This document shows positions 148 through 4,248 of a DNA stretch of 4,279 nt, one piece after another. Made by a program: the position numbers and the translations under genes. The stretch's first letter is position 1, and every line of letters starts with the position of its first letter. The stretch is from IMG/VR virus record IMGVR_UViG_2778261058_000012, one strand, 5' to 3'. The notes below the pieces were generated by a model, which saw nothing but the letters and a program-made list of their open reading frames with translations, was not told the origin of the DNA and searched no databases. Source of the DNA: a virus. Its lineage: Duplodnaviria > Heunggongvirae > Uroviricota > Caudoviricetes.

Positions 148-435
148 TCAGAGAATGCGTTTGACCGCCTCGCTATATACTTCCGAGCGTTCTCTTTTCC
201 CAACAGAAATCACGAAAACGACAACTTTCTCGTCTATAACCTGGTATACAAGGCGATAGCCTGAAGACCGGAGCTTAATCTTGTAACAATCAGGCATACC
301 ACGGAGCTTGTTTGCTTCAATCCGGGGTGACTCAAGTACTTCAACCAGCTTCTTTTTCAACTGTTCACGTACCGTCGAGCCCAGCTTTCGCCATTCCTTT
401 AGTGCCCGCTCGTCAAAATCCAGAAAATACGCCAT
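148..435 (-). CDS. relE: RelE mRNA interferase toxin (ribosome-dependent endoribonuclease), 95 aa
   Basis: Translation MAYFLDFDERALKEWRKLGSTV...VISVGKRERSEVYSEAVKRIL is essentially E. coli RelE; start overlaps the relB stop (TGATG), the usual TA operon arrangement. Confidence 0.95.
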   Translation of the reverse strand: MAYFLDFDERALKEWRKLGSTVREQLKKKLVEVLESPRIEANKLRGMPDCYKIKLRSSGYRLVYQVIDEKVVVFVISVGKRERSEVYSEAVKRIL

Positions 436-674
436 CAGAGTTCATCCAGCGTCACACGTACTGGCTTAGGATTACGAAGCCGTTCTTTCACTATCTCCAC
501 AAGTTCAGCATCTTCATCACTCAGGAGTGTCTGTTTGAACGGCAAGCGTTCATTGTCAGCGATATACTCGAGCATGAGACGAAGCGCTTCAGAAGGAGTT
601 ACACCCATTTTTTCAAGCGCGGCGTAAGAACGCGCTTTAAGTTCATCGTCAATACGCAGGTTAATGCTACCCAT
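435..674 (-). CDS. relB: RelB antitoxin, 79 aa
   Basis: Translation MGSINLRIDDELKARSYA...NPKPVRVTLDEL matches E. coli RelB; GAGGTG Shine-Dalgarno 7 nt upstream of the ATG; 1-nt overlap with relE. Confidence 0.95.
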   Translation of the reverse strand: MGSINLRIDDELKARSYAALEKMGVTPSEALRLMLEYIADNERLPFKQTLLSDEDAELVEIVKERLRNPKPVRVTLDEL

Positions 675-682
675 GTCTTACA

Positions 683-740
683 CCTCTTGTAATTACAAAT
701 GTCATTACAAGTATCGCACTACAACATGCTTAGGGCAAGT
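683..740 (-). promoter_or_regulatory. relBE promoter with relO operator (inverted hexad repeats overlapping -10 and transcription start)
   Basis: Minus strand reads TTGCCC (-35, plus 734..739) - 17 nt - GATACT (-10, plus 710..715) - TTGTAATGACATTTGTAATTACAAGAGGTGTAAGAC-ATG; the TTGTAAT/ATTACAA inverted repeats are the RelB2-RelE binding sites known for this operon. Confidence 0.7.
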
Positions 741-992
741 CACGAAGGAAGTCAGAAAGTAGTCGTAAGAACGGTGATCACTGTCCGCTTTGTGCCAGGA
801 GCAGCCATTGCTAAGTCCATCCTGTATTGTGCAGGTCAGCTCGTTTTTAAAGAGTCCGGCCATCATCTTACTGGTACAGACACCATATACTTTGTGACGG
901 TCAGGCTACATATGCACAACTCAACTTATTCATCTATTTTTTGCTTTAGCATGTCAGTGTTGCTTTCTCGTCGGCGGGTGGCGGTGACCTGA
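699..992 (+). CDS. Hypothetical small ORF (97 aa) divergent from relB, at the position a ydfV-type prophage ORF would occupy; coding status uncertain
   Basis: Open frame from ATG 699, but the start lies inside the relO operator, there is no convincing Shine-Dalgarno, and the composition is not clearly protein-like. Kept only because it is the sole candidate in the relB-flxA gap. Confidence 0.2.
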   Translation: MSLQVSHYNMLRASHEGSQKVVVRTVITVRFVPGAAIAKSILYCAGQLVFKESGHHLTGTDTIYFVTVRLHMHNSTYSSIFCFSMSVLLSRRRVAVT

Positions 993-1155: not shown

Positions 1156-1182
1156 TAAAGATTTTTTTGTGCATGCCGATAG
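1156..1182 (+). promoter_or_regulatory. Sigma-28 (FliA) class 3 flagellar-type promoter for flxA
   Basis: TAAAGATT (1156..1163) - 11 nt - GCCGATAG (1175..1182) against the sigma-28 consensus TAAAGTTT-N11-GCCGATAA; followed by AGGAG Shine-Dalgarno (1195..1199) and ATG at 1206. Confidence 0.75.
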
Positions 1183-1205
1183 TGCTTTTTTAAAAGGAGA
1201 AATCT

Positions 1206-1538
1206 ATGTCTGTCACAATTCAGGGAAATACCTCAACCGTTATTTCAAACAACTCCGCCCCGGAAGGAACATCAGAAATAGCCAAAATCACAAGACAAAT
1301 TCAGGTGCTGACTGAAAAGCTTGGGAAAATCTCATCGGAAGAGGGGATGACGACACAGCAGAAAAAAGAAATGGCTGCATTGGTACAGAAGCAAATTGAA
1401 AGCCTCTGGGCTCAACTGGAGCAGTTGTTAAGGCAGCAGGCAGAGAAAAAGAATGAAGACGCGACAGTTCAGCCTGATAAAAAAGAAGAGAAAAAAGACG
1501 ATACAAATACCGCTGGCACCATTGATATTTACGTCTAA
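1206..1538 (+). CDS. flxA: FlxA, FliA-regulated prophage protein, 110 aa, function unknown
   Basis: Translation MSVTIQGNTSTVISNNSAPEGTSEIAKITRQIQVLTEKLGK...TIDIYV matches E. coli FlxA as I recall it; strong Shine-Dalgarno; dedicated sigma-28 promoter upstream and terminator downstream. Confidence 0.9.
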   Translation: MSVTIQGNTSTVISNNSAPEGTSEIAKITRQIQVLTEKLGKISSEEGMTTQQKKEMAALVQKQIESLWAQLEQLLRQQAEKKNEDATVQPDKKEEKKDDTNTAGTIDIYV

Positions 1539-1552
1539 GTGACAGCCGTATT

Positions 1553-1576
1553 GTGGCCCTCATCGGGCCACTTTTC
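1553..1576 (+). terminator. Rho-independent terminator of flxA
   Basis: GTGGCCC (1553..1559) / loop TCATC / GGGCCAC (1565..1571) followed by TTTT (1572..1575): GC-rich 7-bp stem plus a T-tract 15 nt after the flxA stop. Confidence 0.7.
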
Positions 1577-1922: not shown

Positions 1923-2150
1923 TTAAGAATCTACCCTATGAATGGATATGCACTCAACCGAATCGATCTTGGTTTCAATCTTTTTTATCGGGATCAGGCT
2001 TCTTTTTAGGTAACTTCGGGGGCTTAACTTGCTGATGACTTTGCGTTCGGCGCGTAAGCCAGGGATGGTCAGCTTTAGGTTTAACATAGTATTTTGAGCG
2101 TAAATCAATACGGGCATTATCCACTCGTTCATGGACACTCTTTTCATCAT
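1923..2150 (-). CDS. Hypothetical 75-aa ORF, start overlapping the stop of the O-like gene (ATGA); possibly a remnant of the next replication gene
   Basis: Minus-strand ATGATGA at 2150..2144 gives the stop of the upstream gene and the start of this ORF in one 4-nt overlap. No recognisable family; followed by ORF-free DNA. Confidence 0.25.
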   Translation of the reverse strand: MMKRVSMNEWIMPVLIYAQNTMLNLKLTIPGLRAERKVISKLSPRSYLKRSLIPIKKIETKIDSVECISIHRVDS

Positions 2151-2875
2151 CCAGTGGTAGGCTCTTTTGGTCGCATGATCTCGCCATCATCACTGGCTGC
2201 CTGTTCGTAGAGACCCACGATCCGCCCCCAGATCCACTGCGCACACGCCAAATCCTCCCTGCTACCCCACTGGCGTTTTTTCGCACTAAACACAACCGCG
2301 TCGGAGTTCCGGGTTAAAAAATCCTGTTCAGTCGTCTGCGGGTCCGGTTGCGAAGCTTCCGGACGAAAAGTGTTTTTATTCTCTGTAGTAATCTCTGTTG
2401 TATTCTCTGTAAGATCATCAGGCCATTTTGACCCGATGACATTGGGTCGTTTTGAACCAATGGAGCGTTTCATTTTGACCTCTTCCATCGTGTCATTTTG
2501 ACCTGATGGAGCGGCGCATTTTGAACCGATGGATTCGCTCAATTTGCCACCATCTAAAAGCTCGCTCCCATAGTTGATCGTGTAGAAATTGGTCATATCG
2601 CGCTTTGATTTATTGAGCTTTTCACAACGCAAAAGCCCCAGCGTTTTCAGACTTGCAAACGCGCGCTTTAACGTTGACTCTGACCAGAATGGGAACTGTT
2701 CCAGCCATTGTTCCGTTGTGTTATAAATCCAGCGAACACCATCACATTCCATGCCGGAGTTGGTATCTCTCAACCAGTAGTGCAGTTGTTGCAAAACAAT
2801 GGCTTCGTTTAAGCCAATTTTCATTGCCAGCTGCGTGTTTATAACCAGTGGGCGTTCAGCAAAAAGAAGGCTCAT
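2147..2875 (-). CDS. Phage replication initiator, functional analogue of lambda O (iteron-binding origin protein); start assigned to ATG at 2875, alternatives TTG 2929 or ATG 2824
   Basis: Third gene of the dicC-led minus-strand operon, the position of lambda O. The coding sequence contains five direct repeats that translate to repeated IGSK-containing peptides (SESIGSK..RSIGSK..NVIGSK), followed by an AT-rich repeat block, the hallmark of an origin embedded in an O-type gene. The ORF-track start at 2929 is TTG and overlaps the upstream gene by 74 nt; ATG 2875 overlaps by 20 nt. Confidence 0.65.
   Translation of the reverse strand: MSLLFAERPLVINTQLAMKIGLNEAIVLQQLHYWLRDTNSGMECDGVRWIYNTTEQWLEQFPFWSESTLKRAFASLKTLGLLRCEKLNKSKRDMTNFYTINYGSELLDGGKLSESIGSKCAAPSGQNDTMEEVKMKRSIGSKRPNVIGSKWPDDLTENTTEITTENKNTFRPEASQPDPQTTEQDFLTRNSDAVVFSAKKRQWGSREDLACAQWIWGRIVGLYEQAASDDGEIMRPKEPTTG
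2378..2412. repeat. AT-rich block with three tandem 12-bp repeats (TCTCTGT-NGTA-N) flanking the iterons; candidate DNA-unwinding element
   Basis: TCTCTGT at 2380, 2392 and 2404, within TGTTTTTATTCTCTGTAGTAATCTCTGTTGTATTCTCTGTAAGA; encodes the repetitive peptide TENTTEITTENKNT. Iterons followed by an AT-rich tract is the same order as in lambda ori. Confidence 0.45.
2423..2555. repeat. Iteron array (candidate prophage replication origin) inside the O-like gene
   Basis: Direct repeats with core CATTTTGA(C/A)C starting at 2424, 2448, 2471, 2494 and 2517 (period 23-24 bp, about two helical turns), plus a degenerate sixth copy AATTTGCCACCATC at 2541..2554. The fuller consensus CATTTTGA(C/A)C(C/T)GATGG is met by the first, fourth and fifth copies only. 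Confidence 0.65.
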
Positions 2876-3377
2876 AATTCCATCCAGCTTTTTGTTGGTA
2901 TTGCTGTCGATACGCAAGTTTGAAAGCAATTGCTTTTTCTATAAGTTCGTCAGTTTCACGATCCACTACGGCAGGATCAGCAAAAAGCAGTCCGGACTCC
3001 ACCACATCGCCATATTCTTTGTTTAACCCGGCGATCATGCACGTGATGCTTTTTCCGTCAGTAATTTCACGATACAACCTGAAATCATTAATCCGGATAG
3101 CCTCCATAATTGCAGGCACTAGCGCCGTGAACTTTTCACGCTTATCCCTGGTGTCGATAGCCTTCCAGCGTTCAAATATCTTCACTCGATTAACGCCAAG
3201 CGCTCGCTGATCAATCGCGCCACCTTCATATGTGACACGCTGAACATCGATGTTCGGGCGCTCTTTCAAAGCCCAGAATGCTTCAGTGATTAATATCGTC
3301 GCCTGCTCCTGTGTCATTCCTGGTCGACATATCCAGGCATCCAGAGCCTCACGAGCCTGTTCAGGAGTGATTTTCAT
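2856..3377 (-). CDS. YdaT-family protein (CII-position regulator, toxic on overexpression in Rac), 173 aa
   Basis: Second gene of the operon, overlapping the dicC 3' end by 17 nt. Begins MKI and has an internal KREKFTALVPAIMEAI segment resembling the REK..LIPAIL region I recall from Rac YdaT; the family assignment rests on recalled similarity and synteny (cro-like, then ydaT-like, then replication gene). Confidence 0.5.
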   Translation of the reverse strand: MKITPEQAREALDAWICRPGMTQEQATILITEAFWALKERPNIDVQRVTYEGGAIDQRALGVNRVKIFERWKAIDTRDKREKFTALVPAIMEAIRINDFRLYREITDGKSITCMIAGLNKEYGDVVESGLLFADPAVVDRETDELIEKAIAFKLAYRQQYQQKAGWNYEPSFC

Positions 3378-3591
3378 TGTTCAACCGCCCCGCCCGCTTC
3401 GTCTTACGATATTCATCATAAACTTTGGGATCATACTGAAGCTCCCCGCCAGATGCCTCCTGTAGACGCATCGCGCGACCTTCGGGAACTAAATCCCCTT
3501 TCCAGCTATAAAGCGAAGCCAAACGAATACCTGCTGCTTGTGCAAGTTTTGTTTTTGAACCGAAATACAAAAGAGCGTCAGTTTTAAGCAT
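3361..3591 (-). CDS. dicC: DicC, Cro-like transcriptional regulator of the prophage immunity region, 76 aa
   Basis: Translation MLKTDALLYFGSKTKLAQAAGIRLASLYSWKGDLVPEGRAMRLQEASGGELQYDPKVYDEYRKTKRAGRLNNENHS matches E. coli DicC as I recall it; AAGGTG Shine-Dalgarno; divergent from dicA. Confidence 0.9.
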   Translation of the reverse strand: MLKTDALLYFGSKTKLAQAAGIRLASLYSWKGDLVPEGRAMRLQEASGGELQYDPKVYDEYRKTKRAGRLNNENHS

Positions 3592-3674: not shown

Positions 3675-4082
3675 ATGGAAACAAAAAATTTAACTATCGG
3701 CGAACGCATCAGGTATCGTCGGAAAAACCTCAAACACACCCAAAGGTCTCTTGCTAAAGCCCTGAAAATCTCCCATGTGTCTGTATCACAATGGGAACGG
3801 GGTGATAGTGAACCTACAGGGAAGAACCTTTTTGCCCTCAGCAAAGTATTGCAATGCTCACCAACATGGATTCTATTTGGCGATGAAGACAAGCAACCAA
3901 CACCACCTGTTGAGAAGCCAGTTGCCTTATCCCCCAAAGAACTAGAGCTCCTTGAGCTGTTTAATGCACTGCCAGAATCAGAACAGGATACCCAGCTCGC
4001 CGAAATGCGAGCTCGAGTAAAAAACTTCAATAAACTCTTTGAAGAATTACTAAAAGCCCGTCAGCGGACAAATAAAAGATAA
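3675..4082 (+). CDS. dicA: DicA, cI/C2-like HTH repressor of the prophage (represses the dicB cell-division-inhibitor operon), 135 aa
   Basis: Translation METKNLTIGERIRYRRKNLKHTQRSLAKALKISHVSVSQWERGDSEPTGKNLFALSKVLQCSPTWILFGDEDK... matches E. coli DicA as I recall it; N-terminal XRE-type HTH. Confidence 0.95.
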   Translation: METKNLTIGERIRYRRKNLKHTQRSLAKALKISHVSVSQWERGDSEPTGKNLFALSKVLQCSPTWILFGDEDKQPTPPVEKPVALSPKELELLELFNALPESEQDTQLAEMRARVKNFNKLFEELLKARQRTNKR

Positions 4083-4116
4083 CATCATCAATGAGTTATC
4101 TTTTACCACATCAATT

Positions 4117-4176
4117 ATGTTAGCTATAGCATACAAAATCACTTGACCGATATGTTAGTCATGGCTAATCTTGTTT
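4117..4176 (+). promoter_or_regulatory. Candidate repressor-controlled promoter for the operon downstream of dicA (dicB-operon promoter position)
   Basis: TTGACC (4143..4148) - 17 nt - TAATCT (4166..4171); the spacer/-10 carries the near-palindrome TTAGTCATGGCTAA (4155..4168), closely related to the 3609..3622 operator, and a second site TGTTAGCTATAGCATACA lies at 4118..4135. Confidence 0.45.
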
Positions 4177-4248
4177 GCATCAACACACCGCACGGTGTTC
4201 TCAGCAAACAGTTCCGCTACCCCAGCGTTAAGGGGAAATGAGGTCAGC

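Follow-up and report, generated by a model that had tools for sequence, protein, structure and literature searches.

The locus examined here raises the question of how a small gene of a lambdoid prophage comes to be expressed together with the flagellar genes of its host, and whether the promoter responsible belongs to the prophage or to the gene. A preliminary description of this DNA had presented flxA as a prophage gene wired to the host flagellar sigma factor. The whole stretch of DNA analysed (4,279 bp, henceforth the window) comes from a lambdoid prophage of Escherichia coli, of the Qin type.

Location of flxA in a Qin-type prophage

The genes of the window are as follows.

148-435, minus strand: relE (Pfam ParE_toxin; K-12 annotation)
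435-674, minus strand: relB (Pfam RelB; K-12 annotation)
699-992, plus strand: ydfV (K-12 annotation)
1206-1538, plus strand: flxA (ORF list; Pfam FlxA PF14282; K-12 annotation)
2147-2929, minus strand: O-like replication gene
2856-3377, minus strand: cII/YdaT-like gene
3361-3591, minus strand: dicC/cro
3675-4082, plus strand: dicA

Positions 1100-1620, which span the promoter, the Shine-Dalgarno sequence, the ORF and the hairpin considered below, are 100% identical to the flxA region of K-12 (b1566, Qin), so the gene name used in the preliminary description is correct. Of 5,426 complete E. coli genomes, 1,202 contain this segment at 99% identity or more.

Compared to Qin of K-12, the window shares the neighbours relBE, ydfV, dicC and dicA. 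It differs in retaining 933 bp (2165-3097, with the O-like and cII/YdaT-like genes) that are absent from K-12, in a 1-nt deletion near the end of ydfV (around 980), and in its initial 45 nt, which diverge. In place of 2165-3097, the K-12 prophage contains the ydfX remnant alone. The deletion in ydfV alters the last residues of the protein, which has 97 aa in the window versus 101 aa in K-12; ydfV gave no match in Pfam, NCBIfam or PHROG. Judging from this comparison, the prophage of the window is less decayed than that of K-12.

Some other observations concern the region beyond flxA. At about 2150-2160, many other strains carry an inserted ISEsa1 transposase with extra genes, and the window segment 2150-3097 represents a third variant of this part of the prophage, IS-free and less decayed, next to those of K-12 and of the ISEsa1 strains. 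Inside the O-like gene, five iteron-like repeats of about 23 nt (CATnnnGnCATTTTGAnCnGATG, period 23-24) occupy 2416-2531, the position where a lambdoid origin is expected, and three 12-nt repeats TATTCTCTGTAG are located just upstream of them, at 2377-2412. Rfam gave no match on the whole window.

The sigma-28 promoter of flxA and its dependence on FliA

The elements found ahead of the gene are the following.

1156-1163, plus strand: sigma-28 (FliA) -35 element TAAAGATT, 7/8 match to TAAAGTTT
1175-1182, plus strand: sigma-28 -10 element GCCGATAG, 7/8 match to GCCGATAA
1189-1191, plus strand: expected transcription start, placed by the usual distance from -10 to +1

The near-consensus sigma-28 promoter that had been claimed for flxA is indeed there. 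With its 11-nt spacer, TAAAGATT-N11-GCCGATAG agrees with the consensus TAAAGTTT-N11-GCCGATAA at 14 of 16 positions, and it was the sole match when both strands of the window were scanned. At the same tolerance (up to 2 mismatches), none of 200 dinucleotide shuffles gave a sigma-28 match; allowing up to 3 mismatches, the shuffles gave a mean of 0.07 matches. Between the end of the -10 element and the ATG there are 23 nt, the site thus lying a short distance upstream of a gene on the same strand, as class-3 promoters do. The distance from the -10 element of sigma-28 promoters to +1 is usually 7-8 nt, and the transcript would have a 5' UTR of about 15-17 nt.

An exact GCCGATA occurs once more in the window, at 3695-3701 on the minus strand, inside the start of dicA but on the strand opposite to that gene and with no -35 partner; it was judged to be there by chance. 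The best sigma-70-like site of the window (1074-1047, minus strand, TTGACA-16-AATAAT, 11/12) is within the ydfV-flxA spacer and is aimed antisense into ydfV.

The expression of flxA with the late flagellar genes, put forward in the preliminary description, is borne out by published work on the identical sequence. The first description of the gene (Ide & Kutsukake 1997, pmid 9358034) announces in its title the dependence on FliA and the dispensability for motility. A FliA ChIP-seq peak assigned to flxA falls on exactly 'TAAAGATTTTTTTGTGCATGCCGATAGT', the normalised expression by RNA-seq was 280 in the wild type versus 2 in the fliA mutant, and the authors name flxA among FliA promoters that are well characterised and have no evident flagellar function (Fitzgerald et al. 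2014, PMC4183435). In microarrays, flxA decreased 28-fold in a fliA deletion and increased 8-fold five minutes after induction of FliA (Zhao et al. 2007, PMC1935009). Genomic SELEX recovered the ydfV-flxA spacer in vitro with the RpoF holoenzyme alone (Shimada et al. 2017, PMC5493296), and in strains with flhDC-activating insertions flxA was up 35-fold (PMC11237407). None of the evidence gathered speaks against the regulation by FliA. Since this regulation has been published for identical DNA, the FliA dependence of flxA is already known, as a result of 1997 repeatedly confirmed genome-wide, and as first stated the finding leaves the known extent of the FliA regulon unchanged.

These data also bear on the possibility that the promoter match is incidental, flxA owing its transcription to a sigma-70 promoter or to read-through out of ydfV, or being a decaying remnant without function. 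The position of ydfV upstream on the same strand is compatible with it, and so is the defective character of Qin, in which the genes next to flxA vary through deletions and IS insertions. However, the generic scan detected no sigma-70-like site on the plus strand upstream of flxA, and a sigma-70 promoter was rejected on this ground; the expression collapses in the fliA mutant and FliA binds both in vivo and in vitro (PMC4183435, PMC1935009, PMC5493296); the ORF, the promoter and the Shine-Dalgarno sequence are conserved in homologues down to about 25-30% protein identity; and flxA itself is at least 99% conserved in the 1,202 genomes mentioned above. An incidental match is thus extremely improbable, and the published data on fliA mutants already refute it.

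Compared to the canonical class-3 promoters (fliC, tar, motA, flgM and flgK), which are FliA-bound and FliA-dependent and are shown beside flxA in PMC4183435, the flxA promoter has the bipartite motif and the 11-nt spacing in common. The gene differs from those in being outside the flagellar and chemotaxis operons, on mobile DNA, and in being dispensable for motility according to the 1997 title. Other FliA targets without an obvious role in flagellar assembly, with which flxA has been grouped, are modA, ves, ynjH, ycgR and yhjH/pdeH (PMC4183435, PMC1935009). Unlike flxA, all of them are fixed chromosomal genes, and ycgR and pdeH have since gained clear functions in motility control, whereas flxA has none.

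Translation start and terminator-like hairpin

The rest of the flxA unit consists of the following features.

1194-1199, plus strand: Shine-Dalgarno sequence AAGGAG, read from the sequence, 6 nt before the ATG at 1206
1206-1538, plus strand: flxA ORF, 110 aa plus stop
1553-1575, plus strand: intrinsic-terminator-like hairpin followed by UUUU, -14.5 kcal/mol, z = -4.2

The strong Shine-Dalgarno sequence attributed to flxA was confirmed as AAGGAG, and a GGAG-type sequence is retained at most of the homologous loci. The ORF is AT-rich, with 43% GC, below the host value.

Concerning the claim that flxA has its own terminator, the evidence is divided. Fifteen nt past the stop codon, and hence outside the 1156-1538 interval originally assigned to the unit, starts a hairpin with a GC-rich stem of 7 bp (GUGGCCC/GGGCCAC) and a 5-nt loop (1553-1571), followed by UUUU at 1572-1575; none of 200 shuffles was as stable. 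On the other hand, a generic terminator scan did not call the site, because its U tract has only four residues, and the structure is not conserved in the family. A related hairpin is kept only in closer relatives, namely a 65%-identical homologue (L010) and two plasmid copies (L028 and L029); downstream of the copy in an Enterobacter island (L006) there is no such hairpin, and in the chromosomal copies of the family the end of the gene is convergent with yfeR and overlaps it. It seems reasonable to interpret from the structure that the flxA transcript is probably terminated at 1553-1575.

Considering the promoter, the gene and the hairpin together, the best explanation is that 1156-1575 is a complete, self-contained flxA unit of a Qin-type lambdoid prophage, behaving as a class-3 gene, to which we assign a probability of about 0.9. 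As the published binding and expression data show, RNA polymerase containing FliA (sigma-28) recognises TAAAGATT-N11-GCCGATAG. Since FliA recognises this promoter, flxA behaves as a class-3 (late) gene of the flagellar regulon, expressed only after FlhDC makes FliA and the completion of the hook-basal body frees FliA from FlgM. From the sequence features described, the short leader and the strong Shine-Dalgarno sequence would lead to translation of the 110-aa FlxA, and the GC-rich hairpin with UUUU would end the transcript. The orientation of flxA is opposite to that of the early-right operon of the prophage (dicC, the cII-like gene, the O-like gene and onward to Q), so the unit would be moron-like and independent of phage transcription.

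Conservation of the promoter in the FlxA family

The family was explored by one exhaustive profile-free search and two profile searches. A scan of genome contigs with the single protein gave two E. coli loci, and the distant FlxA loci were reached through the profile searches and contig look-ups. The proteins of PF14282 are mainly from Enterobacterales (Escherichia, Salmonella, Enterobacter, Citrobacter, Kluyvera, Pantoea, Pectobacterium, Hafnia, Cedecea and plasmids of Edwardsiella), with a few in Betaproteobacteria; all the family members checked passed the Pfam threshold.

The 300 nt upstream of each start codon were scanned for promoters in members ranging from 100% to about 25-30% protein identity. 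In every one of the 15 lineages examined, a sigma-28-like motif was found 23-38 nt before the ATG, in flanking DNA that has diverged. The motif had up to 3 mismatches in 11 lineages (Qin, the Enterobacter island, L010, the TraI-linked L017, two copies of Pantoea, L020, L022, L024, L025 and a Citrobacter IncFIB plasmid) and 4 mismatches in the other four (the Enterobacter chromosome, Pectobacterium, Methylophilus and the E. coli gltX-yfeR copy). The sites other than that of Qin read as follows.

Enterobacter island: TAAAGATA-N11-GCCGATAG
Metagenome contig, 65% identity: TAAAGTCT-N11-GCCGATAC
TraI-linked element: TTAAGTTT-N12-ACCGATAT
Pantoea, copy 1: TCAAGTGA-N11-GCCGATAA
Pantoea, copy 2: TAAAGTCG-N11-GCCGATAA
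L020, L022, L024 and L025: sigma-28-like motif at up to 3 mismatches
Citrobacter IncFIB plasmid: TAAAGTAT-N12-GCCGATAC
Enterobacter chromosome: TCAAGCTA-N11-GCCGATAC
Pectobacterium: TAAAGTGA-N11-GTCGATAC
Methylophilus (weakest match; 38 nt upstream): TAAAGCAG-N12-GCCGTTAA
E. coli chromosomal paralogue (gltX-yfeR): TCAAGTTC-N11-ACCGATAT, read by eye

In an alignment of the upstream regions of 10 lineages, the only invariant columns were CCGATA, two positions of the -35 element (T.A(A) core) and the start codon, while the spacer and the flanks diverge and are unalignable. In 195 kb of strand sequence from FlxA loci there were 17 sites at up to 3 mismatches, 11 of which were those located upstream of flxA. 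On this comparative evidence, the sigma-28 motif upstream of the FlxA-family genes is a clear phylogenetic footprint, and the predicted sigma-28 promoter is a conserved attribute of the family, including its non-mobile chromosomal copies.

Chromosomal and mobile copies of flxA

Two types of location were observed. In Pantoea, related metagenomic contigs and Enterobacter, the gene occupies a conserved chromosomal slot, gltX-(tRNAs)-flxA-yfeR-yfeH-ypeB-ligA-zipA, with no phage genes nearby. In E. coli, a FlxA-like gene in the gltX-yfeR slot was present in 1,308 of 5,426 genomes (24%) and is absent from K-12. At 3887-4228 of locus L036, with the gltX-linked tRNA/RtT region on one side and yfeR on the other, it codes for 113 aa, and over the helical core its product shares 42% identity with Qin FlxA.

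The Qin-type branch (64-100% identity) is located on mobile DNA. The gene is carried by a 48.7-kb phage record and occurs inside phage PhiR42_1; the Enterobacter copy is within an integrase/transposase island, and another copy of this type adjoins a TraI relaxase. Members of the family were found on 32 plasmids of Citrobacter, Enterobacter, Escherichia, Salmonella and Edwardsiella. A relE-relB-ydfV-flxA block is present both in IncF plasmids of Enterobacter and in a 6.5-kb mobilisable (MOBP) plasmid of Edwardsiella tarda; in these plasmid blocks (L028, 177-1568; L029, 1712-3333) RelE, RelB and YdfV are identical, and FlxA is nearly so, with a few residues differing. The Enterobacter block also contains hok and is bordered by ISEsa1, which is also true of some Qin variants.

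As the same promoter is present on non-mobile chromosomal copies, it belongs to the gene family. The description of flxA as a prophage gene wired to the host therefore holds as regards the control by FliA, which is published, but its evolutionary direction is probably backwards. The simplest reading of the comparison is that a sigma-28-dependent cellular gene was mobilised with its promoter, and not that a phage gene evolved a promoter for a host sigma factor. The sigma-28 promoter would be ancestral to the FlxA (PF14282) family, whose slot is gltX-flxA-yfeR in several Enterobacterales, and a divergent branch would have been picked up with it by the Qin prophage, by IncF and small MOB plasmids and by integrase islands. 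We infer that flxA took its promoter along into prophages and plasmids, in many cases within a hok-relBE-ydfV-flxA block; synteny is the sole basis for the inferred direction, from chromosome to mobile element. Most likely, the Qin-type prophage carries a cassette that was already sigma-28-dependent.

It is worth comparing the unit with prophage morons such as lambda bor and lom. Like them, flxA is a single gene between phage modules, it has within the prophage its own promoter (the sigma-28 site) and a terminator-like hairpin (the candidate structure with UUUU), it is on the strand opposite to phage early transcription (dicC-O-Q), and its GC content is lower than that of the host. It differs from morons in three respects: its promoter serves an alternative sigma factor of the host; it moves within the larger hok-relBE-ydfV-flxA block; and it has vertically inherited cellular relatives bearing the same promoter, namely the gltX-yfeR copies of Pantoea, Enterobacter and the 1,308 E. 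coli genomes, while a moron is expected to have no such counterpart.

The mobile copies suggest another interpretation, that flxA is a fitness gene of the mobile element, turned on when the host is flagellated, which either protects against flagellotropic phages or modulates motility for the benefit of the element. The occurrence of the Qin-type branch on prophage, plasmids and islands, its travelling with the addiction modules hok and relBE, the moron-like architecture and the AT-richness would agree with such a role. But FlxA matched no PADLOC defence family (the best was LmuB, E = 0.026, 11 bits), and copies with the same promoter are found in a stable chromosomal slot, without phage or toxin-antitoxin neighbours, in Pantoea, Enterobacter and E. 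coli. These chromosomal copies favour a host-cell function predating the mobilisation, and a fitness role for the element is considered unlikely.

Composition and predicted structure of FlxA

FlxA matched Pfam PF14282 with 53.8 bits (cut-off 26.3) over model positions 2-96 of 101, and its chromosomal relatives likewise exceeded the threshold. The protein is small, acidic and repeat-poor, as had been described: it has 110 aa, a pI of 5.0 with 17 D+E versus 14 K+R, which makes it mildly acidic, and TRF detected no tandem repeats in flxA. The lysine/glutamate-rich, charged C-terminal segment also noted earlier corresponds to residues 81-110 (KKNEDATVQPDKKEEKKDD...), rich in K, E and D.

AlphaFold2, with or without an alignment, predicted a helical hairpin (helices approximately 20-44 and 50-85, pLDDT 85-96), with residues 1-19 disordered (pLDDT below 50) and the charged tail disordered too. 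In the family alignments, heptad-like Q/L/I positions are conserved, Lys53 and Gln63 are invariant, and the extreme C-terminus (I/V/L)(D/N)(I/V)(Y/F)(V/I), of the IDIYV type in FlxA, is nearly universal. The 20 N-terminal residues are conserved in composition and not in sequence: residues 2-21 of 29 family members contained a mean of 0.8 charged residues and 42% Ser/Thr, versus 4.2 and 14% in a background of 102 ORFs from the same loci.

Foldseek of the predicted model against PDB and BFVD gave nothing at E <= 0.001, only generic helical hairpins, among which there was a weak match to the T3SS FliJ-like CdsO (E about 1). A profile search of PDB sequences matched only designed (de novo) antiparallel coiled-coil tetramers. 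FlxA matched no family in NCBIfam, and in PHROGs it matched only families of unknown function built from flxA itself. Two large proteins, P0131 (3,361 aa, with 17 stretches scoring against FlxA residues 8-50) and P0147 (2,729 aa, with 7 such stretches), were rejected as relatives, as they are Ig/cadherin-repeat proteins with unrelated Pfam domains; the matches are probably compositional (S/T-rich low complexity plus a short helix). Phenotypes from large screens (isobutanol tolerance with a hipA-flxA deletion, an ASKA oxidant screen and aminoglycoside Tn-seq) were not used, being non-specific. The absence of a known function, stated in the preliminary description, agrees with the y-ome of 2024, which counts flxA among the K-12 genes that are still uncharacterised (PMC11551758).

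FlxA as a possible export substrate or as a cytoplasmic adaptor

The leading proposal for the role of the protein, a tentative one, is that FlxA could be a late substrate of flagellar type III export, like FlgM, and would act at the flagellum or beyond the cytoplasm and not in the development of motility. The class-3 timing and the predicted hairpin with disordered termini are in its favour. Disordered, uncharged, Ser/Thr-rich N-termini are typical of type III secretion signals. The composition of the family N-termini is compatible with export without being specific for it, since an uncharged S/T-rich N-terminus resembles equally a disordered linker. The conserved C-terminal motif (I/V)D(I/V)Y(V/I), as judged from the alignments, could be a chaperone site.

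Two published datasets touch on this proposal. In a cell-free exoproteome of E. coli, FlxA was enriched with the export substrates FlgK, FliD, FliC, FlgL, FlgM and FlgE; cytoplasmic CheY and isocitrate lyase were also present, so lysis is a possible source of FlxA (PMC6391000). At 42 C, a temperature that impairs flagellar export, flxA was singled out as a gene whose mRNA and protein levels shift in opposite senses; which of the two rises is not given in the text (PMC6551532). Against export is the dispensability for motility given in the title of pmid 9358034.

FlgM offers a parallel for such a protein. Both have about 100 aa, depend on sigma-28, have a disordered N-terminus and occur together in the cell-free exoproteome. 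No sequence similarity between them was detected, however, and FlxA has a well-folded helical hairpin in the AlphaFold2 model. FlgM is a small class-3 protein exported by the flagellar T3SS, whereas the export of FlxA is a hypothesis, and no anti-sigma role is known for FlxA.

Many small helical chaperones of flagellar and other type III secretion systems exist, and it may be asked if FlxA is one more cytoplasmic protein of this sort. It would be a coiled-coil adaptor, or chaperone-like, that is not exported and whose hairpin dimerises to a four-helix bundle, with a late flagellar or chemotaxis component as its binding partner; a minor or redundant chaperone or regulator would be examples. The confident prediction of a helical hairpin that resembles generic antiparallel coiled coils is consistent with this, as are the de novo tetramers that were the only PDB sequence matches, the generic Foldseek hairpins with CdsO among them, and the class-3 timing. 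Neither Foldseek nor the PDB profile search, however, gave a significant match to any chaperone family, flxA is dispensable for motility by the title of its first description (pmid 9358034), and an adaptor that stays in the cytoplasm leaves unexplained both the compositionally conserved S/T-rich N-terminus and the FlxA found in the supernatant (PMC6391000). We regard an adaptor of this kind as conceivable, though somewhat doubtful.

Significance for the FlxA family

New here are the conserved sigma-28 promoter throughout the family, the chromosomal paralogue, the mobile hok-relBE-ydfV-flxA cassette and a testable hypothesis of export. The gene is highly expressed and among the most strongly FliA-dependent transcripts of E. 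coli, yet it still belongs to the y-ome. The question thus shifts from a prophage that listens to FliA to the role of a conserved late-flagellar protein, secreted or not.

Going back to export, it is possible, although we put it forward with little confidence, that FlxA-family proteins form a so far overlooked group of small, non-structural cargo for the flagellar type III export apparatus of enterobacteria. If this were true, the sigma-28 promoter, the Ser/Thr-rich N-terminus as an export signal and the C-terminal tail as a site for a chaperone or partner would time the release of the protein to hook completion, and what Qin and the IncF and MOB plasmids acquired would be a divergent copy of a secreted factor.
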